From: Sporopachydermia quercuum
Lineage: Eukaryota
Assembly: GCA_001599295.1 (NCBI GenBank)
Contig: BCGN01000005.1
Coordinates: 1,054,001 to 1,118,000, forward strand
DNA: 64,000 nucleotides
Direction: 5' to 3'
This document shows, one piece after another, positions 3,721 through 59,693 of the stretch. Below the pieces are notes generated by a model that was given only the letters and a program-made list of their open reading frames with translations, did not search any database and was not told the origin of the DNA. Each line of letters starts with the position of its first letter. Positions within the stretch are counted from its first letter, which is position 1. The position numbers and the translations under genes are program-made.

Positions 3721-4329
3721 GATGATACATCAGTAAGTGGTGTTTTATCTGACGACAGTTGAATATGTATCAGCTTCTACACCAATTCCAAAACAGGAAG
3801 TGATACCTAGAAATGTGCCGTGAACGAATCTGACAACAATAGCATTGATGCAACCTCAAGAAAAAAGAAAAAAGAAAAGAAGAAAAATAAAAAGAATGAC
3901 CTTAGACGAAGAAGTGACGGATGCGATATGCCTGAGAACAAAAAGTATCTTCGAAAGATCCTTTAAAATTGATATCTTCATAGGTAGTGTCAAGGGAATG
4001 CTATATGATACAATTCCACTGAGTGAGAAATTATAGGCTCGCGGTCAGTTTTTTTCAGACGAAGAATTGGTCAGAATCTCCTCAGTAAAGGTTCCAGCCT
4101 GAGAACTGAATATGATAGATTGAAAAACAAAGATACCAACTCCATTTCAAGCAATCAATAAATTTGAATAAGATATTGAAAATAGGATTAAACTTAATTA
4201 GATAGCCCTACTTCTTTTGAATTGCTAATTGGCTTATAGTCTTTCAGTCAATGGCCCTCCACAACAGTATATCCTCCTTATTTCAATGCATTACTTCTAT
4301 CTCTTGAAATCATATTGATTTGTGAACCA

Positions 4330-5140: not shown

Positions 5141-7635
5141 ATTTCGAATCTGGAAGACCGAAATTATATATTCCTTTTCTAAAACATAAATGTTCTCCTC
5201 CTATTCATCTATGCCTCAAGTGACTACCATACGATAGCTTGAAAAAGAAAGTACACCAAGTATTACCAGATATGCAGTTCTAAGATTCCCCTTTTCCCGC
5301 TCGATGGCAAGTTCAATGATTTTAACTATCCTGGCATATGGAATATAGGACTCAATAATGTCGTTGCTATTATGTTGATCAATATCATCCTCCAGACATC
5401 ATCATCCGACGAGGCATCACTTTCCGAACCGCAAATTTCACTCCTTAGATATTGTATTTGCTTTCAATTTAACAAGTACCTTCTAATATGAATGCAATAA
5501 AAATTATGATGTATTAGACTATATAATAATAAATTGAAATATGTACTGGGTGGCCCCTTTATGCCCTAATATCTAACTTTCGTGAGTGCGTTGATGCTAA
5601 TNTATAAAGATTCCAAATAGATCCTGAATTGAGACTTGATGTAATAATAGTAGTTGCCTGTCCCTTGTAAAAATTGATTAATAAACAGGNAAACTCTGAG
5701 AATAATAAAATGCGCAGTTAGAAAGTAAATGGCATCCTTCTTGTTAAACCAGAAAAAGAGAAGAGTCTCTAAATGCTTTAGTATAGCAATAGTACGATAA
5801 CACTAATGAGTAGGATGGAAAGAAAGCAAACCGATCTTTGCATAGCTTCGGTTTCTTTCTTCTTTTTTGGCTAAAATGTTTGTAATGAGTAAAATCGCAT
5901 TGCTTTGATTTCTAACGAAGGGTATTTTTTGATTTGTTAGAAAAATTGCTAAGACGGAAAAATAGATCTAGGTTGCCCAGATTATACCAAGAGATCCTGC
6001 ATTACGATGAGCTAATTTGGCCCTTTTAAGTGAACAACCTAACTAAATAAATCGAAAACCACTAAAATGGATATATCCCAAAAGGGATTTAAGAATAAAA
6101 TATATGTTTGTCATGAAATTATTTCTATTGAAATTGTTCATGTCTTAATTGATCACAGAGCCTTCATTTCTTAAAATCCAAAAGGCCGATACTTCGCTGT
6201 GAAGATGTTCTGCTTCTCTTGTTGAATTCATGATTGTTTTTTCCTTCCCATGATCTCTGAAAGTTTTATTGCTATTTCAAGAAAAAAGTATCAGGCAGTA
6301 CAAGCTTTGCCAAGGTTGAAGGGTCCGAGATAGAAGCATTTTGATTGGATCTAGTTTGTTCTGAGGGTAGAAGAAGCAAAACTTACTTGAATCAGAAAAT
6401 ATGAAGTTGAGGTTACTCGTTCATCTTCGTTCGTTGGATCAGAGTATATCCCAACTGAAACATTATCTGATGAAGGAAATCTTTCGTTTTCCTTTTTTGG
6501 TCTACGATTTCCGTTCTGTCGTGGTACATAAAGTTAGTAACTTAGTGTTAAACCTTAAAATCTTTAAGAAGATTTCACCGAGACGATAAAATAGAAAACC
6601 CCGATTTGTTTTGAACTATGAAAGCTTACTTGTTTCAAGTCGATCACTTGTTCGCTATTACATGATTCGTTGACTGCATGGAACAAATCTTAAGAGCAAA
6701 GTGTAATTGTGATTCAACTACTCGCATGCTTGTGTATCTCATGTCTTAGTCCCAGCCTGAACGAAAACTTCTGAAAAAATATTATACTCCAAAAATCTTA
6801 TTTCTCAAACCAAAAGTCAACGGTTTCATGAAGGTATTTAATGATGCCTGCATACATACCTTCATTGTTCTTTTAACACGACGGGTGCTGTTGCATTTGC
6901 TCGTTCACTCCTTAATTCAAAGTTCATTTGATTCCCAGCCTCGAAACCTAAATTGGAGCAAAAAATTCCTTATATGAGATCTTTCCAAGATATACTTTCG
7001 GCTTAAGGTTTAACCTTAAGTTCATATTTAAAGCTTAACGTTAAATCTCTATCCTGAGTTTTTCTTCCTCATTTTTCTGAACCTTAATTACGGATAGATC
7101 ACTGACTTGCTAAGCCTAACTGTTCGTCATATTTTGAGCACCTTCTACGCCTTCTAAATACTTGTTATGTCTTTTCTAGTTCTTTCTCTTACTCATTTTT
7201 TCAAAATGATTCGTCTACAAAGCTGAATGGATGACTTGGAGGGAGAAATTCTCGATTCATTCCTGTTGTACATTTTTTGGATGGTGGTTCGTTCAAGCTT
7301 TATGCCTAATAGCAGGTAAAATCGAAACAATCCAGCCTACTGAGTATTGGGGAAGTCAAGGCAATAAGAAAAGGAGATAACAATTAAATTTAAAAGGGAC
7401 ATTAGGCAGAAGAACGGGAGTCGATTTTGGGAAGAAGAAGAGGTCAGGTTCCAAAAGAAATTAATGGAGAAAATATCAATCTTCTCTCCCAAAGAATAGT
7501 GAAGTTTGAGTATTTGATTTATATTCCATTATTGTACCAATTTCAGAGAAATATCCCCAGAAATTTATCGAAGAAAATAATCAACTTTTACGGAGAGAAA
7601 CTGCATTTGAATTGCGATCTTTCAAAGAACTTATT

Positions 7636-26680: not shown

Positions 26681-28708
26681 ATGGGAGCTCAAACAGCACC
26701 ATCAACTATCAACAAACTGAAACTAAGATGGCCAGATGGACCAAAAAAAAGGAAAAGAGTATATACAGTTGAAGCAAATGTTCCAAATCGTATGAAAATT
26801 CCCAAGAAGAGACTGAAGAATCTGAGGTTTATCAATAGTTCTAATGGTGATATCAGCAGTCCTGTTAAGACACCTGAATCATCAACAGACACTGAAACAA
26901 TCATTTATGAAATTAATGATGTAATTAATGATGTACAGTCTTTCCCTGCATCAAATAAACAAAATCCATCTATTCTCCTACCCGAGTTAACGGCAAGAAG
27001 TCCTAGTGGGTTACTTTCACCTCCTTTGCCTGCTGCTCACCAGTTATTATCAGTAGAAGACGCTTCAAATGCACTTACGGATGGTATTCCAGACTATTTC
27101 GATTTTGATGTTACACCCAGTGAGCTTCATCAAGCTCAATGTGCTGAATTAGCAAGATCCTCACCTTTAGAGAATATTGGAGTTCAAAATCTACATACGG
27201 AGTTTAATATCAATGATACAGCCAATAATGATGGTAGTACTATAGCTAATTCTCCAAATTCCAGAAGCAATAATATGATTGGCGAGTCTCCTCATGAACC
27301 ATCACCTTCAAGTTCACAGCTTATAAAGCAGATTTTATCATATTCTGTTGATTTCAATATTGTCAGAAACAATAGTAACAATAATGAAGACGTTCTAAGT
27401 AATAATAGCAATAGAATAACAGCATTAGATGAATCTGATTCACTCCCTTCCTCATTGCATAATTCTTTACATGTTCTCAACAACAATTCTCCCCCAAAGA
27501 CTTCCTCTAATTCATTAAGGGCTCCTTATATGACTCCTCAAAATTCTTTAGGTCATACGGACAGATTAGATGAATTAGTAGGGAAACTAGATTTTGCTGT
27601 ATGTGTTGTCTTCGGAACAAACATTTCATCCTGTTGCGATAGATTGGTGGCCAACATTTCTCAAGCTTGTAGAGGAAACAGCAAGCTTATTAATATGGTT
27701 CAAGGGATTGTTGATAAGTTAGTCTTGAAGAAAGAAACAAAAAACTATCCTTTGCCAATTGACCTAGACAAGAATGATTTGAAAATGATGGTAAATCCGA
27801 ACTCCTATCAGTTAAATGTTGTTCTTACAACAGTTTTCCTTAATTATTTCACTCAAATTGTTTCTCCTGGTTTAAGGAGAATTCAACCTATATTAAGGCA
27901 AATGCAACTNTTATACTCAACTATTGGAGATCTCGAATTATATCAGAATAACAGCGATATTATGGCGTGGACAAAATTATTTAGTTGGTATGACTCAATA
28001 TCTTCAATGATGATTGGAAGAAGGCTTCAATTACCTAGAAGATATAAAGAAATGGCATTTAATTATATGCCAAAGACCACTGATAGACATGATAGCGATT
28101 TATACGCGAATATCGGCTGTCCCGATAGTTTAGCATCAATCATTATAGATATGGCATATATTTCTGGCGAAATTGGTTTAGAAGCTTTTGAACATCGATC
28201 GAATATCTCACAGGATACTTGGAAACAAATTGAGCACATAATCTTTTTGATTTATACATGGAATGATAATGCAAGACTCGCAAAAGAACCAGATTATAAA
28301 TATGATTTAAGAATGACTATTCATAATTGTTGGAGATGGGGATCATTGATTTACATTTATACCGTGTTTTATAGAGAGAGATGTGATAGTGAGAAAGTTC
28401 GTTGGTTGAGAGATAAAATATTTGAATCTATACGAGAAAATCAAAAGTTGAAGTCTAAACAGCTATTATGGCCGTTCTTTTTGGCATCATGTCAAATTCC
28501 TAGCAATGACATGGAGATTCAAGCCTTTTGTCTGAATGTGGTTGACTCGTGGTATGTGGTGACTAACTGCGCAGATATTTTTAAGACAACAGTTGATATT
28601 CTGTTAGAAGTTTGGAATGATGATAAAGAAACAAACGGGCTGAACAGATGGTGGAGTTGTCTTCAGCAAAAATATTATTCTCTAGGCCTTGAGGTTATGT
28701 TCACTTAA
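26681..28708 (+). CDS. Fungal-specific transcription factor (Fungal_trans_2-type C-terminal domain); no Zn2Cys6 cluster seen
   Basis: C-terminal FSWYDSISS, GCPDSL..IIDM, CWR.GSLIYIY, LLWPFFLA and LLEVW motifs. KLRWP lies near the N-terminus. The first ATG is at 26681. Confidence 0.8.
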   Translation: MGAQTAPSTINKLKLRWPDGPKKRKRVYTVEANVPNRMKIPKKRLKNLRFINSSNGDISSPVKTPESSTDTETIIYEINDVINDVQSFPASNKQNPSILLPELTARSPSGLLSPPLPAAHQLLSVEDASNALTDGIPDYFDFDVTPSELHQAQCAELARSSPLENIGVQNLHTEFNINDTANNDGSTIANSPNSRSNNMIGESPHEPSPSSSQLIKQILSYSVDFNIVRNNSNNNEDVLSNNSNRITALDESDSLPSSLHNSLHVLNNNSPPKTSSNSLRAPYMTPQNSLGHTDRLDELVGKLDFAVCVVFGTNISSCCDRLVANISQACRGNSKLINMVQGIVDKLVLKKETKNYPLPIDLDKNDLKMMVNPNSYQLNVVLTTVFLNYFTQIVSPGLRRIQPILRQMQXLYSTIGDLELYQNNSDIMAWTKLFSWYDSISSMMIGRRLQLPRRYKEMAFNYMPKTTDRHDSDLYANIGCPDSLASIIIDMAYISGEIGLEAFEHRSNISQDTWKQIEHIIFLIYTWNDNARLAKEPDYKYDLRMTIHNCWRWGSLIYIYTVFYRERCDSEKVRWLRDKIFESIRENQKLKSKQLLWPFFLASCQIPSNDMEIQAFCLNVVDSWYVVTNCADIFKTTVDILLEVWNDDKETNGLNRWWSCLQQKYYSLGLEVMFT

Positions 28709-38664: not shown

Positions 38665-40232
38665 TAAGGTAATGTTTTAATAAATAAATGGCAATACGAA
38701 GTACAATGGTACTTCTTTAATCGAGCGAAAGAAGAAGAACAAGAAGAAGTAGATACCCGTAATAATTAAGAGAACAAATAGCAGGAAAGGGAAGAGCAAA
38801 ATAATAGCAACTAGAAGAGTCGCTGTAACGTATAATATCCAGGCTATAATTGGCTATCGATTAAGCAGTAATTTCAAAACTCAGTATAGTTGAATCAAGT
38901 AAAAGGTATTGAGTGTTCATAATCTATGATATTTTAGTAGTAAGAAACGTTCAATTAATGGCTTTTAAAACAGCAACAGCAAGGCCTATTGTAAAACTGT
39001 TGTCTGGTGTCAATAGATACCAATCAATAGTTTTTCATACGGTAAGTCTAATTCATGATTCATGATATACATTAACTAACATGTGTTTTACATTTCAGCT
39101 AGCCATCTATCACTAAAATATGGATTCTGTATGTTCGTTTGTTCCACATTCAAACGGAAAAACTAATATTGGAATACGAAATATCTTCGGATGAAAACGA
39201 GGTTGAAAAGAAGACTAGCAGACTTTCCATATAATATCCAGATGTTTCAGATGTTTCGACAACCCCAATCTTCAATAATAACAATTTTAGTGACAATAAA
39301 GTCAAGGTACTGCCTCCAAGGGAAATTGCGGTTGAAACTTGACTTATTTAGATCTATCAGCTTATTTTGTATGTTAACCGCAGAAGCTTATAGATATGCT
39401 ACTTTCAGATGCCTTCAAGATGTATTGGAAATCACCAATCTGATGGAATTTGCATTTAGCTCTATTTACAATATCGCGAACTATGAATTAGTTATTGATG
39501 GTCAGATAGTTTAATTTTTAGAGATCGTTAAATAAATATGTTCGAACTGCGAGTCGTTGGTTGCCAACTATGGCTTACTACTCCATATTTTACAGTGCTA
39601 CACCATACATCTATAGTATATTATGCTCTAAGATATCAAACACCAAAACTAAACCTATCAGTTGATAATGCTGTTACTCTTTTTATATCATTAGTTACTA
39701 GGTTCCTAGAATTAATCAAAGTCGTACAGCAGTCACAGTGCAGTACATATATATAGGATTAATTATTTATTCTAGTATTGTTTGTAGGTTGAGCATATCT
39801 TTGCAGAGATATAACGGTTTAAGAGGTTTAAGATAATGATACTTTATCCTAATAGCACTGTTGCTGACAGTTCAGTATGTTCGTTCACTATTTTATTGTT
39901 CTTTTCATACAACAAACATCAATTAGCAATTACTTTCAAGTGATAAAAACAACAGCAAGACAAACAATTTATAAAGAGGTAACTCAAATGATCTTCAGAT
40001 TCTAATTTACCAGCTGTCATATTGTTGTCTAAATCAATTATTGTGATATCCCTTAATTCTGATGCATATCAATACAAAATATTTTAATTGGAATCATCCA
40101 CATAGTACAACAGGTATCCTGATTGTCATTCATTATTATTATGGTTTGCACTTTCTCAAGTTATTCAATGATTTTATACTCATGTTTGCTCGTCCGCTTA
40201 TTCTTACATAAAAAATCCACGAATATCCCTAT

Positions 40233-42341
40233 CTATTCCTTTGTCATTATCTCGTTCATAAACTGGTTTGCCTGATCTTTCAATACATCGACAATTCGCC
40301 GACAATCTGCATCCATTTTGGCCTCTACTTTCTCTATTTGTAGATCTATCCATTGGTTCAAAGTTATATCTAATTCCTGTTTAGGAATCAAATGGTGAAG
40401 CCTGGACGGTTCGTTTTCCTGATTTAGTAATGAGTAGATCTTTTGAACTGCCGCTTTGGGGAGCGATTGATGCTTAGCGTGTGGAGATATGGCTAAACTA
40501 GAACCCGAACTTGAATTTAAACTGGAACTTAAACTTGGGAACACTATTCCCTGTGGCTGAAGGTGCAAAGATCCTGGCGATCTGGTGAGCTGCTTCATAG
40601 GAGAAGTCGCTGTAGAAGATTTTAATTTCAGGATTGGTTGTGGAGTTGCTTGTTTGTTTGATGGTTTATTCATGAGGTTGATATGCGTTTTCATTGGTGA
40701 TTTATGAAGTTTTGATGGTGTTTTTGGTATGAAGACACTTTCGTCTGCAGGATGTTCGTCAACCTTTCTCGCGCTATTTTCTGGCTTATTAGCGGAAATA
40801 GCAGCTTTGGAAGGTATTTTAGCTCTAGAAACGGTACTAGTAGTAGTGGTAGCAATAACAGCGGCTGGTTTATGTTTCTCACTGACTGTCTCAACAGTAG
40901 CTGATTCTCCAGCGATTACGTGCTGTTCAGTTTGCTCTGTTGCTGCTTCTGCTTCTGCTGGAATTTGTTGCGGCAGTTTAGATTTAAATGAAGTGGTATT
41001 TTCAAACACTTTGGTGGCTGAAGAGGATTGAATTTGAGGCTTGTTTCCTCTTTCTAGAGATTCTTCTCCTAATTGGTCAGCATCCATGCTACTTTCAGCC
41101 ACAGTTTTCTCTGGTTTCTTCTTTTGGCCTGAACTTTTGTCCTCTTTTCCCTTTTTAGCTGTTGGCTTCCGTTCTGTCCTTGTCATCTCCTCTGTCTCTT
41201 CCGCTACGCTTTCTGTTATAAGTTGCGTTATATTTTCCGCTATAGGCTCACTCTTCTTTTCCTTTTCCTTTTCCTTCTTGCCTACTTGTTGTAACGCATC
41301 AAATAAGTCATCATTTTCATTCTGTCTATTATTGGAATCGTCTTCAGCCATAATGTTAGAGATTCGAGATTTAGGTTTCTTGCTTTTCCGAGGCCGACCT
41401 CTCGTTTTAGGTTTCTCTGGTGTTTCTTCCTTTTCGGGAATTGAAACTGGCTTACCAGACGTGCAATCGGTTGCATCAGTGCTTTGCTCAGCCAAAGTAT
41501 CGGTCTCGTCTTCGATTTCGTCTTCGGTATCAGCAGCAGTTGCAACCGCAATAATTTCATCCCTATTTTTCCCTGCCACCGAACTCTTTTTCCGTTTGAC
41601 GGATCTGGTACTTTTCCCGGCTTTTCCAACCTTGGTGGTTGAGCCCTCCCGAGCCCGTTTAGTGGACATCCTTCGGGAATCCCGCTTTCCCAATTGCTGG
41701 CAGTGTTTCGAGCTTTCCGAGGCCGTGAAAAAATAGCAATCAGGTGCTCTTCTCCGGTGTTCCTCGGTAGGATTATCTTTAACTTCCCATCCTTCTAACG
41801 ACAGTCCACAGTATAAACAACCAGCCAAGTCATCACCTTCTTGCTCGGAAGAGCAATGGAATCCTGCTTGCACAAGCCGTTTTGATGTCGGAATCCAGCC
41901 TTTTTTTCCGTCGTGAGGCCACCAGTTGCCGAAGCTTGCCGTTCGGATATCCATACACTCGAGTGACGTCGGGTCACTGAACACTCTATCCCGGCTCCAA
42001 AATGTTTCGTCCAGGCTGAAATCGGAATCCTGCCTCCGAGCTTTCTCCACTTTTGCAGCTGTGCTGATTAAAAGCGCATATGCACATTCTGGAGCCATTT
42101 TTGCGTGCACCGAGATAGGATCGTCTTCGGGAGTCCATTCATCCAATGATTGAGAGCAGAAATCGCATGTTACGTTATCTTCGGAGAGTTTGTTTGGTGT
42201 GAAATGAAAGCCAGATCTAGCCATTTGAGTGCTGCTTGGAACAGCATGTGGCCAATCAATAAGTTTGATTTTTCTGCCTCTGCCATTTCCTGTTACCTTT
42301 TGCTGACTGAATGTCGCTAGCCTCTGAGCGAATGCTTGCAT
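40233..42341 (-). CDS. BIR1: Bir1/survivin-like chromosomal passenger subunit with two BIR domains
   Basis: Two BIR repeats (RLATF...WPH...GFHF....DNVTCDFC...L.EW...DDP...H....PEC and R..SF..WWPH...AGF......D...CLYC...LEGWE..DNP..EH....PDC), then a long disordered region and a C-terminal helix. First ATG at 42341. Confidence 0.92.
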   Translation of the reverse strand: MQAFAQRLATFSQQKVTGNGRGRKIKLIDWPHAVPSSTQMARSGFHFTPNKLSEDNVTCDFCSQSLDEWTPEDDPISVHAKMAPECAYALLISTAAKVEKARRQDSDFSLDETFWSRDRVFSDPTSLECMDIRTASFGNWWPHDGKKGWIPTSKRLVQAGFHCSSEQEGDDLAGCLYCGLSLEGWEVKDNPTEEHRRRAPDCYFFTASESSKHCQQLGKRDSRRMSTKRAREGSTTKVGKAGKSTRSVKRKKSSVAGKNRDEIIAVATAADTEDEIEDETDTLAEQSTDATDCTSGKPVSIPEKEETPEKPKTRGRPRKSKKPKSRISNIMAEDDSNNRQNENDDLFDALQQVGKKEKEKEKKSEPIAENITQLITESVAEETEEMTRTERKPTAKKGKEDKSSGQKKKPEKTVAESSMDADQLGEESLERGNKPQIQSSSATKVFENTTSFKSKLPQQIPAEAEAATEQTEQHVIAGESATVETVSEKHKPAAVIATTTTSTVSRAKIPSKAAISANKPENSARKVDEHPADESVFIPKTPSKLHKSPMKTHINLMNKPSNKQATPQPILKLKSSTATSPMKQLTRSPGSLHLQPQGIVFPSLSSSLNSSSGSSLAISPHAKHQSLPKAAVQKIYSLLNQENEPSRLHHLIPKQELDITLNQWIDLQIEKVEAKMDADCRRIVDVLKDQANQFMNEIMTKE

Positions 42342-44367: not shown

Positions 44368-46720
44368 ATGAATAAAGAAGAGAGTGAAAGAACTGGTCAG
44401 AAGAGAAGTAAGAAATTTACAAGATCAAACACTGGTTGTTTATCATGCAGAAGGAGAAAGTATGTTAACTTTGGTCTTTTATTTTACTTATTTTCATTTA
44501 TTTGTGATAATAAATGAATTATCACTATAGCATAGTATTATTCACTAACGGTGGAAATTAAGGAAGAAATGTGATGGAACTAAGCCAAAATGCGGTGCCT
44601 GTATCAGACTCAACAGAGATTGCATTTACCCTTTTGCCAACCTTCAATGGCAGTTTTATAATGCTCAAACTACGTCCTTAAGTGGATTATCAATACATAA
44701 TGATAAACCAGCAATATCTTCAACGATCTCCCAATCAATAGTAGAACATCCAGCTTCAGATAAAAAGGTATCTAAAACGAATCAAAAATCGAAACTTCAA
44801 ATCAGAAGACCTATATTCAAAATTCATTACCCTAATAAACAACCAACTAGAAAATATGTGTCATCATCGCCTACATTATTACCAGTATCTCCTACAACTG
44901 TTTCAGACACTGGTGTATCACCCAAACATAATACCTTCAATAATGTCAGCATCAATGGTACATCAAATCAGGTGAAAGCATTCTTGACAGTTCCTTTCGT
45001 CGAGTCAGGTCATAACGATCGTCCATTCCTTTCTGCCACCCAGTTTCCCGATACTTACAATAATATTCAAACTAGCCACATTAATAGTCAAAACCACATC
45101 AATAATCACCATTTTGATCTAATATCCAGCCGGTCGCACCTTCTTACAAAGAATAGTATTCACCACACTACGCGATTTGAAAAAGAGTTCGAGGCAGTTG
45201 AAAACTGGAAGTCTTCTTTAAGTTTTGCTGCAGATAATGTGTTTCATGACACAGATGACCTAGATGAATATTACTCATCTTCTGGCTCATCTTCTGGTAA
45301 TGAGATGTTTTCATTCATTTTTCCTGGATTTGGAGAAATCCAACAGTTACTTGATAAACAACCACCTATTGAGAGTCTAAGAAAGCAACATCTTAATAAA
45401 AACAAAAAGCAGGAAAAAGTGAATGGAAGAGATATGATAATCTTTGACAAGAGTATTGATAGTAATAATGACAATAGTAAAGAAGTTTATAATGGTTTCG
45501 ATACTGTGTCATGCTTTATACCTTCAGTTATGGATTTTTCACCGAGAAGAAAATCAGAAGAAGTCACTTATTTATTAGATCCTGAAATCATAAACAACTT
45601 ACTAGGGTCGTTTAAAAGCATAGTAACACCGAATATAAGCACATCATATAAAGCAGAAGAGAACTCATTTGTCAATGTGTATCTTCCACTAGCTTTTTCC
45701 AGTAACGTTGTACTGAAAGCTGTACTTGGGTGGACTGCAACATCGTTATCAACTCGCGGTTATCAATCAAATTTTGATCAAAAGCCAATCAGAGAACTAC
45801 TGGATAGTGTTGAAGAGGAATTAGATGAAATGTGTTTTGATACTCAAATAAGCTCAAATGTTGAGAAAACTGAAGTTTTTCTANCTATAATTTTTATTTT
45901 GGTAGCTGTTGATGTGACGCTAACTGGAAATGGGTCATGGAGAAGTTTACAGTCAATGGCAGGGAAAGTAATCGGACGGCTAAATATTGAAGAATTTTGC
46001 TTGAAACCTTCCAGGAAATGGTTGCTTCAAAATTATTTATATCATGAGCTTACAGGAACGTGTACAACCATAAAAAATTTGAACATTAGTGTGGATAATA
46101 TAAAGAAGGTGTTATCCTCCGATGACATACCAGAATCATATATGGGTATTTGCCGACCTATGTTTAGCATAATTAGTGAGATATTAATTTTATCTAATAG
46201 CAGGTTGAACAATTTATCAGAGAAGGACTTAACTGATTTATTCGCAACTGCTGTTGATATAGAATCTGATATTGAGAGAGTGAAACCTTTACCAGTACCT
46301 TCAGAGGTTTCAGAGAGTAATAATACTGTTGTTCCAGCTAGTTTGAAATTATTTGCTATTCTGAAAAAAGTTGCTTTGCTGATGTTGAGACAATTGGTAT
46401 ACCGTGATGTTTCGCATTCATTGAAAACAGTTATTTTGGTGAGACAGATCATCAACCAGTTACAATTGATTTTTGGCAAAGGTGTCGATAACATGATTCT
46501 TCTACCATTGTTTATTGTCGGGGTTGATGCAATTTCAAAGGAAGATAGATTATGGGTTACTGAGAATATTCAATCATTATATGATAGAGTGAAGGTTGGT
46601 AATGTTCAAACAGCAAAAAGATTACTTAAAGAAATATGGAATTTGAATCCATTAGGACAAAATTATGTCTTCTGGCCCGAAATTGCTGAGAAAACCTGTT
46701 TTGATATCAGTTTGGCCTAG
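44368..46720 (+). CDS. Zn(II)2Cys6 transcription factor with a Fungal_trans_2-type domain (Uga3/Arg81-like architecture), 2 exons
   Basis: Exon 1 44368-44459 and an intron from GTATGT 44460 to AAG 44562 (CACTAAC branch) reconstitute RSNTGCLSCRRRKKKCDGTKPKCGACIRLNRDCIYP, in frame with the 44858 ORF. C-terminal YLYHEL, YMGICRP, LPLFIVG, LLKEIW and FDISLA motifs. Confidence 0.92.
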
Positions 46721-48020
46721 ATTTTATTGTATGGTATAATGATTCGGATAGGAATGTGAATTTTTGGATTGTACAGGGGTTATTTGAAGTATATAGAGAA
46801 AAGCTAGAGTATGAGAATCAGTTCCAGAAATTTGATTAACATAAAAGTCCGTAAAAGCACTCCTCTGAATGCTATGTTTTACATCTACTTCTTCTTGGAA
46901 CATTAAAGGCTATGTAATCAATTTACTTCAAATATTAGTGATGAATGTATTGTTCTCTTCCAATTCAACTGGCACATGATCTAATTTACTTATGTTGATC
47001 TGTTATGCAACTCAATTGTCAATCTGTCCTTACTCTTAACACTCAATTCACTTACTTCAACAAAATCGGATTTGACTATTTTGGTATATCCCTCTCAACA
47101 GACAAGTCTTCTAAAATTAAAGCTTTCGTGAAATCTAAATACTGGAATCATCAAAGCGAAGTCAAATCCCGTAGTTAAACCTTGGGATGGGAGAAAGCAA
47201 ACAGTTTGGTCGAGATGCGTAATCCCCGAACTAAAAATGAATCCATGTTTGACTATCGAAATCAAGCAAGTCTCGGCTTTCGGTAAGTAGTAGTTTTACC
47301 TGACTCATTCGTAGCCAATATGGGGTTGCTATTATTCAGAGTTGGCTTTCCAAGTGATAATAGTATTATAAAAGGTCAATTTCGCTCGTTCTTCAATTCT
47401 GACTTTTCACATACAATAAAAATCGATTGAACGTTGAACAGTATACTGGTAATACAGTACAGGAGAATCTAAACTCCTACAAATTTAAGCTTAAAATTAA
47501 TAATCTGTACATGAGATGTATAACTTTGGTTCTAAAATTCAATTTTATTCTGCGCTTATCTAGGCCAGAAAAGGAAAGCCGCAAATCTTAGTAGGTTCAA
47601 CCGTTTTCTTTAGTATTTGTTACTGGAATTCTTAGGTATAAATCCAATCGTAATAAGTGAGATCATATTACATTTCTGCTAAATCTGCTGAAAGCTGGAG
47701 TATGATTTTGTTGAAGCCAAATATCATTTTATTTGACTTTCACCAGTACTTTTTGGCACAGTTGTCAGATACCAATTAGAATTTTATGTTAATATGAAGT
47801 ATCTATTTCTAAAAGAAATTTCTGAAGTGCAGTGATTAGGTACTAACATAGTTTACTAATATTGTTTAGGTTGGGTATCTAAACTCTAACCTAGATGTTT
47901 GATTAACTTTAATCTTGAAATATTAAGATTTGACTCTTAGATTCGTAATGAGAACTTTATTTTACTATAGACAGAAGTTTTGCAATAGTGAAAACTCAAT
48001 TGAATTGTTAAATCATTTCT

Positions 48021-48167
48021 TTATCGCATAAACCTTTTTCAGGTAAACTGATAACAGATTATGTACTACGATATGATAGTGATAAAACTAATCAGTTAAT
48101 TGAGTCAACCTGTATGTACCTGGACTTTATATATTGTTCTGATCCCTCTAAATGAACTGCCGTTATC
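48021..48167. promoter_or_regulatory. GATA-site cluster upstream of the urea-carboxylase-like gene
   Basis: GATAA/TTATC at 48021, 48050, 48081 and 48163. Confidence 0.5.
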
Positions 48168-48277
48168 AATTGTCTCCTGGTGAATAGAAAACCATGTTCT
48201 TCCAAAGTGTGGTTATGTCAAACATTGACAAACAAAATTGCCTCGATCTCAATTGATTCATAACTTCTCTTAACATC

Positions 48278-51200
48278 ATGACTATTTCTACCAGCCCTTT
48301 CAAGGCCGTTAAGACTGTCCTTATTGCCAATAGAGGTGAAATTGCATGTCGTATCATCAGAACTTGTAAACAGGTATGTCGCTGTTTTTTTACCCACTGA
48401 CTTATATTTCAATTCGAAAGCCTGAATATTAACAAACTGTAATCTTAGCATGGTCTAAAATCTGTGGTTATTTTCTCGAAAGAAGATGCTGAATCATTAC
48501 ATGTTTCAGAAGCTGATGACAGTATCTTACTGACGGGAACTGGTGTAAGTGCTTATACAGATATAGATCAAGTAGTTCAAGCAGCTAAAATCTCAAATGC
48601 AGATGCTGTCATTCCTGGTTACGGTTTCTTAAGTGAAAATAGAGATTTCGTTGCAGCATTGGAAAAAGAAGGAATTATTTTTGTGGGTCCTGATTCTTCT
48701 TCAGTAGAACAATTCGGTTTAAAGCATTTTGCTAGAGATTTGGCGGTCAATGCTGAAGTTCCGGTGGTACCAGGAAGTGGACTTTTGACCAATAGTAAGG
48801 AAGCTATAAAGTTTGCTGAAAATATTGGTTACCCGATAATCTTGAAAGCTACTGCTGGCGGTGGAGGAATGGGTATGAAAGTTTGTCGATCACCTGAAGA
48901 AGTAGAAGAGGGTGTCAAAGAAGTTCGCAGTAGAGGTTCGTCACTATTCAAAAATGACGGCCTCTTCTTAGAACGGTATGTTGAACATGGTCGTCATATC
49001 GAAGTTCAAGTGTTCGGTAATGGTAAAGGAGATGTTATTGCATTAGGTGAACGTGAATGTTCAGTTCAAAGAAGACATCAAAAGGTTATTGAAGAGACCC
49101 CTTCACCTTTCATTTCTTTACCAAATTATGGAAATGTTGATTTAAGAAGAAAGCTATGTGAATGTGCTATAAAACTTGCTTCTTCCGTTAAGTATAAGTC
49201 TGCGGGTACCATTGAATTTTTAGTTGACGACGATGATGTCTCTTTCTATTTCTTAGAAATGAATACAAGACTGCAAGTAGAGCATGGTATTACTGAAATG
49301 GTTTACAATGTTGATCTTGTGTTCTTAATGCTTTTACAAGCTGATTACGAACTTCAAAATAAAACAGGTATCCCTTTTGACTATCTCAAATCTTACGGTA
49401 AATATGAAAGAGATGGTTATGGTATTCCTGAACCAAATGGTCATAGTATCGAAGTTAGATTATATGCAGAAAATCCATTGCAAAACTTTAGACCTTGTCC
49501 TGGTACGCTTACTCATGTTGACTTTCTTAAAGAGTTATCGGTTCCAAATACAAAGCTGAGAATCGATGGTTGGGTTTCTACTGGTTCAAAGATTACTCCA
49601 TATTTTGACCCTTTGNTAGTAAAGTTGATTGTTTGGAGTGAGACAAGAGATGGTGCAATCAATGGTATGATTGAAGTGCTAACGAAAAGTCTTGTTCAAG
49701 GCCCAACAACTAATGCCGAATATCTTTCTCATATTTTGGATGCTAAGAATTTCCGTACTGGTTATACTTTAACAAGTTTCTTGAACGATTTTGAATTCCT
49801 ACCCTCATTAATGGAATTCCAAATTGCCGGCGCCTATACAACTGTTCAAGATTTACCGGGTAGAATCAAATACAATGGTGGTGTTTTGATGGGAGGACCA
49901 ATGGATAGATTTGCTTTCCAAACTGCTAATGTCATTGTTGGAAATGATTCACATACTGAGGCTTTTGAAATTGTTTTAATGGGGCCAGAGATTAAATTTC
50001 ATTCCCCCGCCACTATTTCTTTGTGTGGTGGTAATTTTGCATTCTCAATCAATGGTAAAGAAGCTCCTTTATGGTCAGCGATCAAAGTTCCAGCTGGTTC
50101 CACTGTTAAAATCGGCGATTTATTATCTGGTGTTGCAGGAAAATGTTACTTGGCAGTTAAAGGTGGTTTACCAAGTGTTGCTTACTACCTAGATTCCAAA
50201 GCCACAAGTCCAACCGTTAGTATTGGCGGTCATCAAGGAGGTCCAATTAGAGCTGGTGATTGTTTAGCACTTGCTCAACATGATCCCGTTGATAGCATCG
50301 AGGTTGATTATATTCTACCAAAGCTTGCAAGGCCAGATTACGATTTTGATGACGATACATTTATTTGGACGATTAGATGTCTCAATGGTCCACATAATAC
50401 CCCAGAAATTATGGGAGAAGAAGGACATAAAACACTATTTGAAACAATTTGGAAGATGAATATGAATTCCAATAGAGGTTCCATTACTCTGGACGGTCCA
50501 AAAGTTCCATTTGCTAGACCTGATGGTAGAGATGGTGGTAATCATCCTGCAAATATTATTGAATATGTTTATCCTCCGTATGGGGTTAGTACTGTTGGTG
50601 ATATGAATGTGATTTCCGCTGCTGATGGTATCACCTTAAGTGGATTTTTAAGTCCTATTGTTCCAATTGAAGCAGATTGGTGGAAAGTCGGTCAAGCAAA
50701 GGTAAGCTCTCAAATTAAATTTGAACATATTACTTATCATGATGCTCTTAAATTGAGAAAGAAACGTAAACAATATATTCAATTTTTGGCAACCCGTCCT
50801 TCTGAACTTGAAGCTAGGAAATCACCATTTAATGATGAGCTTGATACTTATGAAGACGTCACTTTTGACACAATTCTTTATCTCCGCGAGGCAAATGATG
50901 AATTACCATATACAATGTTCAGACAAGCCGGTGAGAAGATGATTCAAATCGACTATGATTTAGAAAAATTCAATCTGGCAAGTGTTGCAAGACAATATTT
51001 ACTGAATATTGAACTAGAGAAACTGAAGCAAAGTAATGAAACATTTGCTAAAGGTGTTTATAGAATGGAAACATCAAATGGTTGTTTGGCTATTGCATTC
51101 GAACCGGAGATCATTTCAAGACATGAATTGATAGAGATTGTGAAGCAAGTTGAAGCAACACTCCCACCAACTAATGAAATGAAAGTACCATCAAGAGTCT

Positions 51201-52174
51201 TCAGATTACCATTGTGCATTGAACATCCAGCAGTTATTGATTGCTGGGAAAGATATATGAATTCTATTAGACCAACAGCGGCATATTTGCCAAATAATCG
51301 TGAATATTTGATGAAATCCTCATTGATTGATACATTTGAAGAATTCAAATCAAGAGTTTATGGTCCAATGCAAGTTGTTACTGCAGTTTCTTTTATTTGC
51401 GCAACACCCTTACTGGTTTATAAAGATCCCAGACTTTCATTCAAGAGTGGTAAATATAATCCATCAAGACATTATACACCTGCTGGTGCCGTTGGTACTG
51501 GTAGTATATCTCAAAGTATTCATCCAATTGACACTCCTGGTGGTTACATGATTTGGGGTTTAACATTACCAAGTTTCTTATGGAACACTTTTGCAAGACT
51601 AGATCAATTCAAACAATTCGGAACTAACCCATGGTATCTCCAAACTTTTGATCAAATTCAATGGTACGAGGTAACTGCTGATGAATTAGATGATTTAGAG
51701 AATCAAATGAAAACCAATAAGTTCATTGTGAAACCTGAAGAGGTCACATTTGATTTTACTGAATATTCCCAGTTTATCGAAACAATTGTAGACGAAGTCA
51801 AAGAAATCAGAGCTAAGCAAGATATTATGGGTGCCCAACTGAAAAAGGAAGATGATTTGCTCAAAGCAGAATGGGAAGCCGAAAAGGCAGCGAGAAAAGC
51901 AGCGAAAGGTGCCGCAACTGAAGGATTAGACGATAATTATCTTAAGTGTGAATCAACAATGACAGCAACAGTTTTCAAGATTAATTTAGCAAAAGGTGAT
52001 AAGTTTAGGCCTGATGATCCTGTTATTATTCTCGAAGCCATGAAAACTGAAATTCCAATCAGAATTCAGAACGCTGATCCTGATGGTGAATATGAAGTCA
52101 AAGAGATTCTGGTTGACGAGAAGGATATTGTCAATTCTGGACAACCAATATTTGTTTATGATAAGGTAAATTGA
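48278..52174 (+). CDS. Stand-alone urea carboxylase-like (LamA-like) enzyme: biotin carboxylase + two carboxyltransferase-like (AHS2/AHS1) domains + biotinyl carrier, 2 exons
   Basis: Exon 1 48278-48373 (MTISTSPFKAVKTVLIANRGEIACRIIRTCKQ) and an intron from GTATGT 48374 to TAG 48448. BC motifs PGYGFLSEN, GGGGMGM, RECSVQRRHQKVIEE and FLEMNTRLQVEH; TTVQDLPGR..GGPMD; KYNPSR..TPAGAVG and PGGY; biotin site EAMK. There is no N-terminal amidase (allophanate hydrolase) domain. Confidence 0.95.
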
Positions 52175-53498
52175 TCAATAGTGATAATATATATTAATAA
52201 TAATTAAAGGGTTTTCAGTGAACTGTGTATTTGTTAATTAGTGATAATAGATTGTAGCGGAAGCTGTCTTTCTTTTTCAAGGTAAGTGTTAGGTCAAACT
52301 TCTAATGAGCCACATAACATATTCAGTTGTTCCAATCGTTAGCAATCATTAGCAACTCATTAGAATGATCGCAATAAATACCTGGTTCACATTTTCCTTC
52401 CGTTCAATTGTTTTTCTCCTGTCTTTGAATCATCTTCAACTGGATCTGATCTAAAATGTTGAAAATTCATCATTTTCTCATATGTTCATTCTATTGGAAT
52501 AGGTTCTATTATGGGGTATAAAAATCTATCAGGAGGTTTTCTCCTCTATTATATAATCACAGAGGAATAGATGATAGGATACCTGTTGCATTTATGGGAA
52601 GGATTATTGTTCAGAATTTATTGAAAGATATTCTTTCTATTCAATATTTCAATTGAAGCAAAAGGACTTCGGGTTAGTTCATGACTCAATTTCTACAATA
52701 TAAGAAAGACCTCCCTACATGACTCGCGCTGTTGACAAAGCAATGATTATCCAATCAGTCAATCAATCAAATGATCGAGAAGTCTCAATAGTTATTCAAA
52801 CATCGCGATTCCATTAAATATAATAATAAATAAATATCAAGAATGATTAGACTTTTCTCTCGACAAACTCAAGGAAACAACAAAGAAAAACAATGTTGAC
52901 ACTCTTGTTTTTGCAGTATTATTTTTTTCAGTGCATATGAAAGAGTGAATTTTTCACCTCACCGGTTTTTTCATCTAATAACTAAAAGTTGGAAATCAAG
53001 ATAAATCTTCATGTATTCTCACCGTAAATTCTTTAATAGTAAGTTTGTGATTTAACAATTGTAACCGCGAATCAAATCTTCGAGAAAAATAGTAATAATA
53101 TGGAATTGAAATTGTTGTCTTCTTCAGTTAGAACTAGAAATGAAAGAGGAAAATTGTCCCACTACATGCAATTCACTGGATCTGGTTGTGTTCAGAGTTC
53201 CAATGCTTTGTTTAGAAATGTTTAAAATTATTATCAAAACAATGAAAGTAAACATTCTAGCATAGTTATTTTGATATTGATGTATATAGAGCAATTAGGA
53301 ATAGTTATTGTCAAAAGGTTTTTCTATACCAACTATTCATTTCACATTACATTTCCAAGTGGAATTAATTGCCTTATTCTTGGTACGATGAGTCGGTCAA
53401 CAATAATGATGAATACNGCTGCTACAATTACAACAGAAAGAAATGATTATGATTAAATAACAATTAAATAGCAATTAAAATATTATTTATTTTGATTC

Positions 53499-54260
53499 TT
53501 ATTTCAATCCCTTCATACTATTGACTTCATCAAGTATTTTCCTTGCTGTCTTTATATTATCTAAAGCACCGGGAAGATCTGAATGAATACATAACGAGAA
53601 AGGCTTACCTTTGAAATTGAGAGAAATTTCCTTACCAGTATTACAAATGATTTTATCCTCTAAAGCACATCTTCTTAGTTGCTCTCCAATATCTTCGGGG
53701 GTTTTTGGAGTCCAATTACCAACAGGTGCTAACTCACCATTTTCTGCCCAATCAATGTCTGCATATAATTCTTCCAAGAACTCAACTCCAGCATCATCAC
53801 ATCTCTTCTTATATCTTTCGCTTCTGGCACCTACTAAAGGAACTTTTAAATCCTTTGCTGCTCTAATTGCGGCATCCATTACATCTTGATTTGTCATGAT
53901 GTAGAAGAATAATTGTCCATGAGGTTTTATAAACTCAAGTTTCATTCCTTCAATTTCTAGGAATGCCTTTAGGGCACCTGCTTGGTAGACAATCAAATCA
54001 TAGATTTCTGCCGCTGGAATTGCCATTGCCCTTCTACCAAAACCCTTGATATCAGGTAAACCAGGGTGAGCACCAACTTTCACACCGTGCTTCTTTGCCA
54101 ATTTCACTGTTTGTTTGATAATAGTGTGATCACCTGCATGAAAACCACAAGCAATATTGGCACAGTCAATGTATGGCATAATATCTTCATCAGGACCTGT
54201 CTTCCATCTTCCGAAACCTTCACCCATATCACAGTTTAACTCATACTTTGTGTAACCCAT
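53499..54260 (-). CDS. LamB/YcsF family protein (5-oxoprolinase subunit PxpA-like, lactam utilisation)
   Basis: LNCDMGEGFGRW, ANIACGFHAGD, GAHPGLPD..GFGRR, IKPHG.LF, ELYAD and SLCIHSD are hallmark LamB/YcsF motifs. First ATG at 54260. Confidence 0.96.
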   Translation of the reverse strand: MGYTKYELNCDMGEGFGRWKTGPDEDIMPYIDCANIACGFHAGDHTIIKQTVKLAKKHGVKVGAHPGLPDIKGFGRRAMAIPAAEIYDLIVYQAGALKAFLEIEGMKLEFIKPHGQLFFYIMTNQDVMDAAIRAAKDLKVPLVGARSERYKKRCDDAGVEFLEELYADIDWAENGELAPVGNWTPKTPEDIGEQLRRCALEDKIICNTGKEISLNFKGKPFSLCIHSDLPGALDNIKTARKILDEVNSMKGLK

Positions 54261-54339
54261 TTTGTTTATATTTTTATTAGAGAGCAATAATAGTTCAATT
54301 GATGTATATCAATAATCCCTTCAATGCAAATCTGAAAGC

Positions 54340-54666
54340 GATAAGATTGAATACTAAGAGAATTTGGTTAGGGTGTAACCAACAAGAACAAGAAGAGGAT
54401 TTAACAGCATTTAAATGTAATACAGTAGTTCTGAAAAGGTTTATCAAAGAAAAAGAGTATTGGTATTTCCGAACCGATAACAATTTCCTTTTGTTATCAA
54501 TCTGTTTGATAATACTGATTGCAGACTAATTTTATCCTTGGTGAGTATTCCATATCCAGTAAGCGATACAACGGCTTACAGAAAAATGAGAAGATAAAGT
54601 AGCATCAGCATTTGTTCATCGGTTCACATTGGTACAAGCTAATCTTAAGTTCCAGGATATTGATAA
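54340..54666. promoter_or_regulatory. Dense GATA-site cluster upstream of the lamB-like gene
   Basis: Eight GATAA/TTATC sites at 54340, 54441, 54476, 54494, 54508, 54532, 54593 and 54662. Confidence 0.65.
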
Positions 54667-55236
54667 TCTTGAGGGCTTACATTCAGTTGAATAATTTTGT
54701 TTAACAGCTACTAGAACCAAGTATGTAGTTGGTTCTTTCATAGAGCGATCGCTTTATTGTTCTAATATGGAAATTTGGTCTTATCAGAATGTTATTTAAG
54801 GTTTGGTTCCTTAAAGTTAATTGAACTTTATATTACTCTAATAAGGTTGTTACCAAAGAGGAATTATGTAATTACGTACAAAAGTTTATTTGAACATATA
54901 CTTATAAATCAACCACTGCTTTACCAAGCCTTTGATTTATATGGAATGTGTCATCATCATAGTAAGGACATTTGGTTATTCTATATTTTATCTTCCTTTG
55001 GAATTTCCTTGCTTTTATTTTACTAGGATTATGAACATTGAGTTCATGCAAAGAGGCCTTCAATTTTAAAATAAAACGTAAGCAGATGCATTCCAAATGA
55101 GAGGATTAATTCGAAGAGAAAATTCTGATATTTCCTTCCATCTACCTACTTGATGCAAATTATTTAGTAGCAGAACAATTTAGTATTACATATTATATAT
55201 CCAATCAACCCCAAAGCATGTGAGTAACCAAAAGAA

Positions 55237-55928
55237 CTACCTCCTCTGTAAGTTACGCTTCATTTGTAATTCATTCTTCTTAATCAGCTTCTTTCTTTCA
55301 GCTCTCTTTAATGTCCTAGGATCGATTAACTTCTCATCAACGGCTGCCTTTCGCTTCTTGGTTGACGAAGTTTCCTCATCAACTTCCACAAGCCATTGAT
55401 TATCCAAATCTTTGTTTTTACCATTAAAACCCCATTTGTTAACCCATTCACCTTTTTCTTCATCATAAACCAATTTACCTGTCTTGCCTTTAGCTTTAAT
55501 ACCCTTCTTACGAGCAAACAGCTCCCACTTCGTCGGAGGTTTGGGCTTAGGAATTGGTTTTTCTCTTGGTAGTTCAGTTGTGGGTTCTGGCAACATTATT
55601 AATGACATAGTTGAATTTTGTGTACCGGTACTATTGTTTGAATCAGTAGTCTTCTTGATAGGCAGAGACAAAATTTGATTGATTAACAACTGTGTATTAT
55701 CTCTAGCAACAACACGGAGAGTTTCTTCTTTCTTTTCTTCTTCACTGAACTCCAATGGGTTCGAGTCAAACACAGCTAAGTTTCCCAAATCATATTCGAC
55801 AGGAATAGGCTTCTCAACAGTAACTGACTTTCTACTTTTTGTTAGCGATTTGATCGTTTGAAATCCCTTCAACATACTTTCATATAGCCTATAACGCAAA
55901 CTGCCAATTCAACATACATTTCTGACAT
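55237..55928 (-). CDS. RRS1: Ribosome biogenesis protein Rrs1 (2 exons)
   Basis: Exon 1 ATG TCA GAA AT (55928-55918) and intron 55917-55832 (GTATGT..GCTAAC..TAG). Motifs VTVEKPIP..YDLGNL..FD.N, ARDN.QLLINQI, LPREKP.P..K..TKWE.FA..KGI and W...WG. Confidence 0.96.
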
Positions 55929-59207: not shown

Positions 59208-59693
59208 TTACTCAGCAGCTTTAATAGCTTCAACCTGAGTAACAAGATAGTCGATATCCTTTCTCCAAAGGATCAAGCCTTCTTCTCCACCTTCCTCCCA
59301 TAATTCATACATCTCAGACTTTTTCGAGAGAACAATCTTCAGTCCACGAAGTAACTTATCTTTAGCTGCATAGACAGTTTTTGCATACTCCTTGTCTGAA
59401 GTTTTAACTTGCTCAATCCAGTCATTCAACTTCGAGTCTGTCCCTCTATAGCTAATTTCCTCTGTGGAAGACTTATCTAATACTGATAAAACCAAAAAAG
59501 GGACCACAGTTAGGTCAGCACAATCATCTAGCTCAAAATACTCCTTTGAATCGGCCGATTGATCTATTATCTTTTCCAATGATACAAACCATCCTTTCTC
59601 CCCTTCAATATCGATTTTGCTTTGGTCAATAAGACTATGAATCGAGTCTAAAGCAGCGTCGTTTTCAAATAATCCATANCCCCAGGCTCCCAT
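59208..59693 (-). CDS. DUF4259-like protein
   Basis: N-terminal MGAW(G)YGLFENDAALD and C-terminal SEMYELWEE....W...I..L match my recollection of the DUF4259 signature; the gene is intronless. Confidence 0.8.
   Translation of the reverse strand: MGAWXYGLFENDAALDSIHSLIDQSKIDIEGEKGWFVSLEKIIDQSADSKEYFELDDCADLTVVPFLVLSVLDKSSTEEISYRGTDSKLNDWIEQVKTSDKEYAKTVYAAKDKLLRGLKIVLSKKSEMYELWEEGGEEGLILWRKDIDYLVTQVEAIKAAE

Follow-up and report, generated by a model that had tools for sequence, protein, structure and literature searches.

What does a budding yeast do with a biotin-dependent enzyme of the urea carboxylase type that carries no amidase domain, and whose gene lies beside a gene for a lactam utilization protein? 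The question is raised by a 64-kb stretch of the genome of Sporopachydermia quercuum (contig BCGN01000005.1, positions 1,054,001 to 1,118,000, assembly GCA_001599295.1; hereafter the window, with position 1 at its first letter). Three intact genes, flanked by housekeeping genes, lie there side by side: a gene encoding a Zn2Cys6 transcription factor (the regulator), a gene encoding a large carboxylase and a gene encoding a LamB/YcsF protein, i.e. a protein of the PxpA type. The reading developed here, to which we give about an even chance of being right, is that, in budding yeasts, the carboxylase and LamB correspond to the fungal LamA/LamB pair and would open a cyclic amide, in a reaction dependent on ATP and biotin, for use as a source of nitrogen.

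An earlier note on this DNA had described the three adjacent genes, the domain order of the carboxylase, its EAMK biotin site and its lack of an amidase domain, and all of this is confirmed by Pfam searches and by reading of the sequence. After removal of one predicted intron, the carboxylase has 1273 amino acids (aa) and carries the biotin carboxylase (BC), carboxyltransferase (CT) A/B, CT C/D and biotin carboxyl carrier protein (BCCP) domains in this order on one chain. Pfam recognizes Biotin_carb_N, CPSase_L_D2 (ATP-grasp), Biotin_carb_C, CT_A_B (8.6e-61), CT_C_D (6e-09) and Biotin_lipoyl in the product of exon 2, and no amidase or AH_C domain in the carboxylase, which begins directly with the BC domain. 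The BC motifs (EMNTRLQVEH and others), the EAMK biotin site and the lysine of KYNPSR are all kept. The residue aligned with this lysine in the urea amidolyase of K. lactis, K1605, is the likely general base of carboxyltransfer (PMC5770610; papers are cited by accession). Judged by these motifs, the carboxylase looks catalytically competent.

LamB is as well preserved: an alignment of 71 sequences has 21 invariant columns, and LamB matches every one of them; its relatives of solved structure are 1v6t, 2dfa, 2xu2 and 1xw8. Fungal homologues named 'lactam utilization protein lamB' are 45–57% identical to it, and homologues named 'lactam utilization protein' are found in Pichia, Ogataea, Pachysolen, Cyberlindnera, Lachancea, Scheffersomyces, Brettanomyces and Yamadazyma. 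S. quercuum is not alone in having the pair: one or both of its members are present in Pachysolen, Yamadazyma, Scheffersomyces, Wickerhamomyces, Brettanomyces, Candida boidinii, Ogataea, Pichia, Cyberlindnera and Lachancea. The locus had been taken to span positions 44368 to 54666; its start holds, whereas LamB begins at 54260 and the stretch from there to 54666 is upstream region of LamB (Table 1).

The regulator, a protein of 749 aa once spliced, shows the pattern of Zn2Cys6 transcription factors, namely a CX2CX6CX5-12CX2CX6-8C cluster followed by a fungal transcription factor middle domain. Its zinc-cluster motif is split by the intron and reads CLSCRRRKKKCDGTKPKCGACIRLNRDC after splicing; the acceptor given in Table 1 is the only one that restores both the frame and the CX2CX6CX6CX2CX6C motif. 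Exon 2 matches Fungal_trans_2 (PF11951) at 2.4e-49 and, alone, gives a partial match to Zn_clus (PF00172) that falls just under the cut-off (20 versus 21 bits) because the first cysteines sit in exon 1. A word-based search returned no relative of the regulator at E <= 0.001, and a search of a protein-cluster atlas returned generic Fungal_trans_2 clusters only. A second Fungal_trans_2 protein (675 aa, 26681-28705, + strand) is encoded 16 kb upstream of the trio; it was considered as a paralogue of the regulator and rejected, as the two have no detectable similarity.

Table 1. Features of the three-gene locus and of its flanks, in window coordinates.
Feature	Position	Strand	Remarks
BIR-domain (BIR1-like) gene	40236-42341	-	flank on the regulator side of the trio
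Regulator exon 1	44368-44459	+	30 codons plus 2 nucleotides (nt); first two cysteines (CLSC)
Regulator intron (predicted)	44460-44562	+	103 nt; GTATGT 5' site, CACTAAC branch-like site, AAG 3' site
Regulator exon 2	44563-46720	+	remaining zinc cluster and Fungal_trans_2; one N at 45884 gives a single X
Regulator-carboxylase intergenic and carboxylase upstream region	46721..48277		without notable open reading frame
Carboxylase exon 1	48278-48373	+	32 aa, N-terminus of the BC domain; holds VLIANRGEIA
Carboxylase intron (predicted)	48374-48448	+	75 nt; GTATGT ... TAG
Carboxylase exon 2	48449-52174	+	1241 aa and stop; one N at 49616 gives a single X
Carboxylase BC domain	to about 49790	+	
Carboxylase CT A/B	49880-50725	+	former AHS2, PxpC-like
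Carboxylase CT C/D	50918-51571	+	former AHS1, PxpB-like
Lysine of KYNPSR	51452-51454	+	aligns with K. lactis K1605
Carboxylase BCCP	51965-52156	+	
Biotinyl lysine	52043-52045	+	EAMK, residues 1196-1199 of the exon-2 product
Spacer between carboxylase and LamB (convergent)	52175..53498		1324 bp stop to stop; no CGG pairs
LamB/YcsF (PxpA-type)	53499-54260	-	one exon, 253 aa; PF03746 at 1.2e-78
LamB upstream region	54261..55236		rich in GATAA cores
RRS1	55240-55875	-	flank on the LamB side of the trio

Place of the carboxylase among urea carboxylases

By its nearest named relatives, the carboxylase would be a true urea carboxylase. Its best family match, over the full length, is NCBIfam TIGR02712 (urea_carbox, EC 6.3.4.6), its best solved relative is the urea carboxylase/amidolyase of K. 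lactis (3va7, 5i8i; full-length alignment, E 6e-215 for the best), the catalytic lysine is kept, and public sources label its homologues in yeasts and Pezizomycotina 'urea carboxylase'. The enzyme would then produce allophanate, to be hydrolysed by an allophanate hydrolase encoded elsewhere (e.g. the amidase half of DUR1,2), and LamB would be unrelated to it. Several lines of evidence make this distinctly unlikely. The TIGR02712 score of 1073.5 bits stays under the curated cut-off of 1303.85, a cut-off calibrated on prokaryotes and applied to a query without the 32-aa first exon, whose residues cannot supply the missing 230 bits. No allophanate hydrolase is matched by tblastn anywhere in the 64 kb. 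The carboxylase is also phylogenetically apart from all carboxylases fused or adjacent to an allophanate hydrolase, and the recurrent linkage and fusion to LamB described in the next section would be left unexplained.

The phylogenetic argument rests on homologues of the carboxyltransferase part. A word-based search with this part returned 62 proteins (7999 candidates scored), of which 26, with 42–50% identity, constitute the yeast clade; six of them are named (Pachysolen tannophilus, Scheffersomyces amazonensis, Wickerhamomyces ciferrii, Yamadazyma tenuis, [Candida] boidinii and Brettanomyces naardenensis). The remaining homologues are 30–35% identical, and the named ones come mostly from Pezizomycotina, many of them lichen fungi. 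An exhaustive profile search yielded 6771 proteins at E <= 0.001, including 211 at E <= 1e-30. A Pfam scan took 33 of the 54 listed representatives of at least 1000 aa and revealed several architectures among them: full amidase-AH_C-carboxylase fusions of the DUR1,2 type (P0196, P0212 and P0220), N-truncated fusions of the same type (P0237, P0250 and P0258) and carboxylase-amidase fusions in the reverse order, with a C-terminal amidase (P0218, P0224, P0253 and P0266). These reverse-order proteins occupy two separate positions in the tree, which suggests independent fusions.

Two unrooted trees of the CT domain were built, one with FastTree from 127 rows (the window protein and 126 homologues aligned over at least 600 of the 656 query residues), the other with the quick mode of IQ-TREE from 54 hand-picked rows. 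In both, with SH-like supports that quick methods can make over-generous where branches are long, the yeast proteins are monophyletic (100) on a long stem (0.73 and 0.92 changes per column) and their sister (98) is a small clade that includes a protein of Capronia epimyces. The two clades lie within the stand-alone fungal proteins in both trees. A branch supported at 99 separates the stand-alone fungal group from a side that holds all five fusions with an N-terminal amidase (DUR1,2-type) present in the tree, the three carboxylase-amidase fusions and the bacterial-like carboxylases. On the evidence of these trees, the carboxylase is not a DUR1,2 derivative and belongs to a long-branched yeast clade inside the fungal stand-alone 'urea carboxylase' group. 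The phylogenetic check proposed in the earlier note thus sets the carboxylase apart from the amidase-fused forms and from the bacterial forms linked to an allophanate hydrolase, in trees whose rows include no named LamA sequence.

Within the CT domain, several motifs shared across the amidase-linked group have given way in the yeast clade to other residues that are fixed there in turn (DGPSLGGF to DG.TLSGF, PGGYQ..GRT to PGGYMIWG..LP and GLGV to AVSF), which also counts against a urea carboxylase. The yeast clade has, furthermore, an unusually low CT_C_D Pfam score, 36–48 bits versus 65–138 in the other carboxylases scanned. The window enzyme thus resembles DUR1,2 and the K. lactis enzyme in its BC-CT(A-D)-BCCP layout, its equivalent of K1605 and its biotin site, but differs from them by the missing N-terminal amidase, its position across the 99-supported branch, its score under the TIGR02712 cut-off and its partner LamB.

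These replaced motifs, the low CT_C_D score and the long stem suggest a changed pocket. They would suit another rival, in which some other nitrogen compound (guanidine, a hydantoin or imide, a larger lactam or a ureide) is carboxylated and the product hydrolysed by LamB; bacterial 'urea carboxylases' that prefer guanidine are known. However, no positive evidence favours any particular alternative, the long branch may reflect mere fast evolution, and guanidine carboxylases work with a carboxyguanidine deiminase and an allophanate hydrolase and are not known to work with LamB. This explanation is regarded as highly unlikely.

Linkage of carboxylase and LamB in other genomes

In the window, the carboxylase and LamB genes are convergent neighbours. 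Elsewhere, the two also occur fused: two proteins, P0046 and P0060 (1512 and 1516 aa), are single-chain LamB-BC-CT-BCCP fusions with LamB at residues 8-240 and BC from residue 258. Their relatives in the prokaryote collection reach at most 40% identity over full-length matches, and up to 45% on two short contigs. Together with P0205, these fusions of about 1515 aa make up a clade of their own in the trees.

Adjacency was assessed on JGI metagenome contigs, which were scanned with an alignment of the yeast-clade-specific block (A3) and gave 12 loci that were then analysed by tblastn. Two of them, L085 and L086, have identical scores and are counted once, leaving 11 distinct loci. LamB adjoins the carboxylase-like gene on four of these 11, divergent on L085/L086, L088 and L091 and convergent, as in the window, on L089, where LamB is distant (25% identity). 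The lamA and lamB genes of A. nidulans are divergent as well, unlike the convergent window pair. On L083 and L087, the gene after the carboxylase encodes an allophanate hydrolase, and neither partner is found on L081, L082, L084, L090 and L092, all of them contigs of about 10 kb or less. On L082 (G+C 0.52), a Fungal_trans (PF04082) protein is encoded at 4221-6191 on the minus strand, just downstream of the carboxylase-like gene and convergent with it; it is possibly another pairing of a regulator with a carboxylase, with a transcription factor of a different family from the window regulator. Within the yeasts, six of the 26 yeast-clade carboxylases have a LamB homologue matched by an identical size of the longest contig (41280, 19121, 44356, 13550 and 12486, and the 2.5-Mb Pachysolen scaffold).

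Bacteria display both kinds of partnership. A search of prokaryotic genomes, in which 80 loci were kept out of 590 confirmed, provided ten loci with a match to the carboxyltransferase, to LamB or to allophanate hydrolase. An allophanate hydrolase directly follows the full-length carboxylase in six of the seven loci with downstream sequence (L001, L002, L004, L006, L007 and L008); none was found in the roughly 6 kb downstream on the seventh (L009), and no LamB lies beside any of these seven carboxylases. L003 and L005 are too short for the partner gene to be judged. The Pseudomonas matches of this search, checked on L023, proved to be methylcrotonyl/geranyl-type acyl-CoA carboxylase loci and were set aside as irrelevant. 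Bacillus badius has a classical biotin-free pxpBC/pxpA locus.

The tenth locus is that of Ammoniphilus sp. YIM 78166 (L024:6334-14582), where an operon encodes a PxpB-like protein, a PxpC-like protein, BCCP, BC and LamB/PxpA; a sigma-54 activator and a second PxpB/PxpC pair follow it. This operon amounts to LamA plus LamB in split, biotin-dependent form. It is preceded by genes of the molybdenum-cofactor/xanthine-dehydrogenase type. A plasmid search with the Ammoniphilus PxpA added an operon of Thermomicrobium roseum (NC_011961.1; L093:3687-7417) for BCCP, PxpB-like, PxpC-like, PxpA and BioY; the annotation names the products, in this order, 'acetyl-CoA carboxylase' (the 82-aa BCCP), carboxyltransferase-domain protein, biotin-dependent carboxyltransferase family protein, PxpA and biotin transporter BioY. 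Like the window pair, the two operons, which are the examples inspected, combine the LamA and LamB modules, here as separate genes (five in Ammoniphilus); unlike it, they are split prokaryotic genes, next to which lies a sigma-54 activator or a biotin transporter. No paper on the function of such operons was found.

The functional tie between carboxylase and LamB that the earlier note had proposed finds support in the fusions, the adjacency on other contigs, the shared yeast contigs and the bacterial operons, and their partnership, as read from genes and gene order, appears well supported. The opposite view, that the three genes are adjacent by chance and have no joint function, could draw on the unrelated housekeeping genes around the trio (BIR1-like and RRS1), on the lack of a shared promoter motif and on the short contigs L081 and L082, which carry a carboxylase without LamB. 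For the carboxylase and LamB, it is contradicted by the fusions, by repeated adjacency in both orientations and by the bacterial operons, and it is barely credible for the trio as a whole; the regulator gene, for its part, may lie beside them by chance.

A putative lactam-opening reaction and its substrate

If the carboxylase and LamB act together on a lactam, the reaction could proceed as follows. The BC domain would use ATP and bicarbonate to carboxylate the biotin of the C-terminal BCCP. The fused PxpC-like and PxpB-like CT domains would transfer the carboxyl group to the ring nitrogen of the lactam (or to the lactim oxygen), giving an activated, imide-like N-carboxy-lactam. LamB, as a PxpA-type metal hydrolase, would cleave the activated ring and the resulting carbamate would lose CO2. 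The net reaction would be lactam + ATP + H2O -> omega-amino acid + ADP + Pi, with gamma-aminobutyrate (GABA) as the product from 2-pyrrolidinone or glutamate as the product from 5-oxoproline. This scheme would parallel that of urea amidolyase, with LamB in place of allophanate hydrolase. A complex prediction for the CT domain (residues 455-1110) with LamB scored 0.00 and gives no verdict.

The closest known case is the lam locus of A. nidulans for the use of 2-pyrrolidinone, where a LamB/YcsF gene is linked to a gene for a large protein of the urea-carboxylase type, LamA. The A. nidulans genes serve the use of a nitrogen source, as the yeast pair would, and AmdR controls 'lactam (lamA and lamB) catabolism' there (PMC8016842). 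The yeast locus differs from it in that its carboxylase belongs to a long-branched clade of its own, with 31–35% identity in the CT part to the Pezizomycotina homologues, and in that the window regulator carries Fungal_trans_2.

The bacterial PxpABC enzymes, including PP_2920-2 of P. putida (butyrolactam hydrolase), provide the chemical precedent. PxpA corresponds to LamB, PxpC to CT A/B and PxpB to CT C/D. PxpABC opens a five-membered lactam at the expense of ATP, and one paralogue acts on 2-pyrrolidinone (bioRxiv 10.1101/2021.12.09.472016). Ring opening is attributed to PxpA and activation to PxpB/C (PMC13274462, PMC8453981), PxpA being a probable metal-dependent lactamase (PMC8453981). Hydrolysis of 5-oxoproline must be driven by ATP because the equilibrium constant [Glu]/[5-oxoproline] is about 0.035 (PMC13274462). 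However, PxpB and PxpC are separate proteins devoid of biotin domains, whose activation step is assumed to be a phosphorylation (PMC13274462), whereas the yeast modules are fused to BC and BCCP, so that energy would enter through carboxybiotin. A carboxyl transfer by such modules has a structural precedent: in the mycobacterial MSMEG_0435-0436 proteins, homologues of PxpC and PxpB, the PxpC-type protein binds the biotin of BCCP and holds it in a position suited to carboxyl transfer (PMC13012033). The PxpC/PxpB module is thus a biotin-binding carboxyltransferase fold even when unfused. Unlike the yeast enzyme, the mycobacterial pair is bound to a long-chain acyl-CoA carboxylase, showed no urea carboxylase activity and is proposed to play a regulatory role, with no LamB partner described in the text consulted (PMC13012033).

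This homology opens a further possibility, in which the yeast pair is a biotin-dependent form of PxpABC whose physiological substrate is 5-oxo-L-proline, converted to glutamate, rather than 2-pyrrolidinone; it would serve to repair metabolites or to exploit pyroglutamate of plant or fermented origin. In nature, 5-oxoproline occurs far more commonly than 2-pyrrolidinone. LamB passes the NCBIfam model of the PxpA subfamily (NF003816, 224.7 versus 213) and falls just below NF003814 (222.7 versus 226), and the CT domain is homologous to PxpC and PxpB (TIGR00724, 172 bits), with a match to the YbgK structure 5dud. Yet neither equivalog model is reached, by LamB (NF003813, 203.5 versus 392) or by the CT domain (PxpC, NF045499, 102.8 bits versus 500). 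Fungal genetics moreover ties lamA/lamB to lactams of the omega-amino-acid regulon (PMC8016842), a 5-oxoprolinase of the OXP1 type is usual in budding yeasts (cited in PMC7067042 and PMC6277891), and the family does not fix the substrate, since in P. putida growth on butyrolactam and growth on 5-oxoproline depend on two different PxpABC paralogues, each being substrate-specific (bioRxiv 10.1101/2021.12.09.472016). That 5-oxoproline takes the place of 2-pyrrolidinone as the physiological substrate is, on balance, unlikely.

In the main reading, the putative substrate of the yeast pair is a cyclic amide, 2-pyrrolidinone or 5-oxoproline, and several observations, beside the reservations already attached to the family cut-off, weigh against this reading. 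In the tree, the LamB-carboxylase fusions and the yeast clade lie on opposite sides; the LamB partnership therefore extends beyond a single carboxylase lineage, and the substrate of the carboxylase cannot be assigned from the tree by itself. On L081, the sole metagenome locus of the yeast clade (46–63% identity), the 2.2 kb that follow the carboxylase contain no LamB. The evidence from the yeasts is indirect: five of the six matched contigs put carboxylase and LamB within 12–44 kb of each other, which is linkage and not adjacency. The A. nidulans LamA to which the carboxylase is compared is a protein that we take to be urea-carboxylase-like. As for the regulator, no tblastn match to it lies beside the carboxylase or LamB homologues on the 12 metagenome loci; the two enzyme promoters have no CGG-type element (CGG-Nx-CCG or CGG) in common; and the promoter of the carboxylase (47278-48277) contains six GATAA cores per 1000 bp, which is not above background.

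The GATAA cores are more frequent elsewhere in the locus, with 10 in the 976 bp upstream of LamB and 11 per kb upstream of the regulator, compared with 3.45 per kb on average over the window and a 95th percentile of 7.4, a background that includes coding DNA. This enrichment would fit nitrogen-regulated genes under the control of GATA factors and is a weak hint in that direction. One CGG-N4-CGG is present at 47274, upstream of the carboxylase; the 10-12-mers shared by the enzyme promoters are AT-rich and were discarded as unconvincing. The idea that the pair is under its own regulator was thus put too firmly: the Zn2Cys6 protein encoded next door may regulate the pathway, and what ties its gene to those of the enzymes is adjacency.

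Chromosomal setting and significance

The window is AT-rich (G+C 0.31–0.43) and its introns are of the budding-yeast type. There is no sign of a recent horizontal transfer of the trio, since its G+C (0.33–0.37) is in line with that of its surroundings. At eight of the ten CTG codons of carboxylase exon 2, leucine is the commonest residue among 59 homologues, and the codons read as leucine include the invariant leucine of EMNTRLQVEH; therefore, the standard genetic code applies. No tRNA gene was found in the 64 kb. The description of the cluster as self-contained was overstated, as no transporter and no catabolic gene of the GABA or glutamate side adjoins the trio in the window.

Some features of the window lie outside the locus. 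Eighteen isolated single Ns, several of them within open reading frames, are scattered over positions 5602-59679 and look like masked or ambiguous (possibly heterozygous) sites rather than assembly gaps. An open reading frame of 161 aa on the minus strand (59211-59693) matches DUF4259 (PF14078, 1.4e-18), a mostly bacterial family that is unusual on a yeast chromosome. The AT skew reaches -0.268 at 40001-42000, over the BIR-domain gene, and far exceeds that of the rest of the window.

A stand-alone carboxylase in a budding yeast is not itself new, since public databases list it in several yeasts. The statement that stand-alone urea carboxylase is 'completely absent' from Saccharomycotina, made in 2011 from seven sampled species (PMC3073912), would nevertheless be updated. 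The fungal lam locus has been known genetically for decades, and no description of the chemistry of its two proteins was found in the literature searched. Likewise, in agreement with the earlier note, no paper on the biochemistry of a carboxylase-LamB pair in any organism, or on the role of such a pair in a budding yeast, was found in a search that mostly excluded subscription journals. With its compact and nearly intron-free genes, the yeast locus is a convenient test system, and there is a practical side to it, as 2-pyrrolidinone, valerolactam and caprolactam are industrial lactams.

A broader proposal can be made tentatively, with rather less confidence than the lactam reading itself. LamA-type carboxylases and LamB may represent a distinct, undescribed enzyme class, a biotin-dependent lactamase that would carboxylate and then hydrolyse, in parallel to urea amidolyase, and that would extend from bacteria, as split operons of PxpB, PxpC, BCCP, BC and PxpA, to fungi, as fused LamA plus LamB and sometimes as a single chain. 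The yeast clade, given its long stem and its altered carboxyltransferase motifs, would have shifted to a substrate different from that of Pezizomycotina. If the lactam reading is true, a biotin enzyme that activates amides by N-carboxylation would bring a further type of reaction into the biotin-carboxylase family, would correct the 'urea carboxylase' label routinely given to many fungal genes and would hint at how PxpA-type proteins work with their PxpB and PxpC partners.

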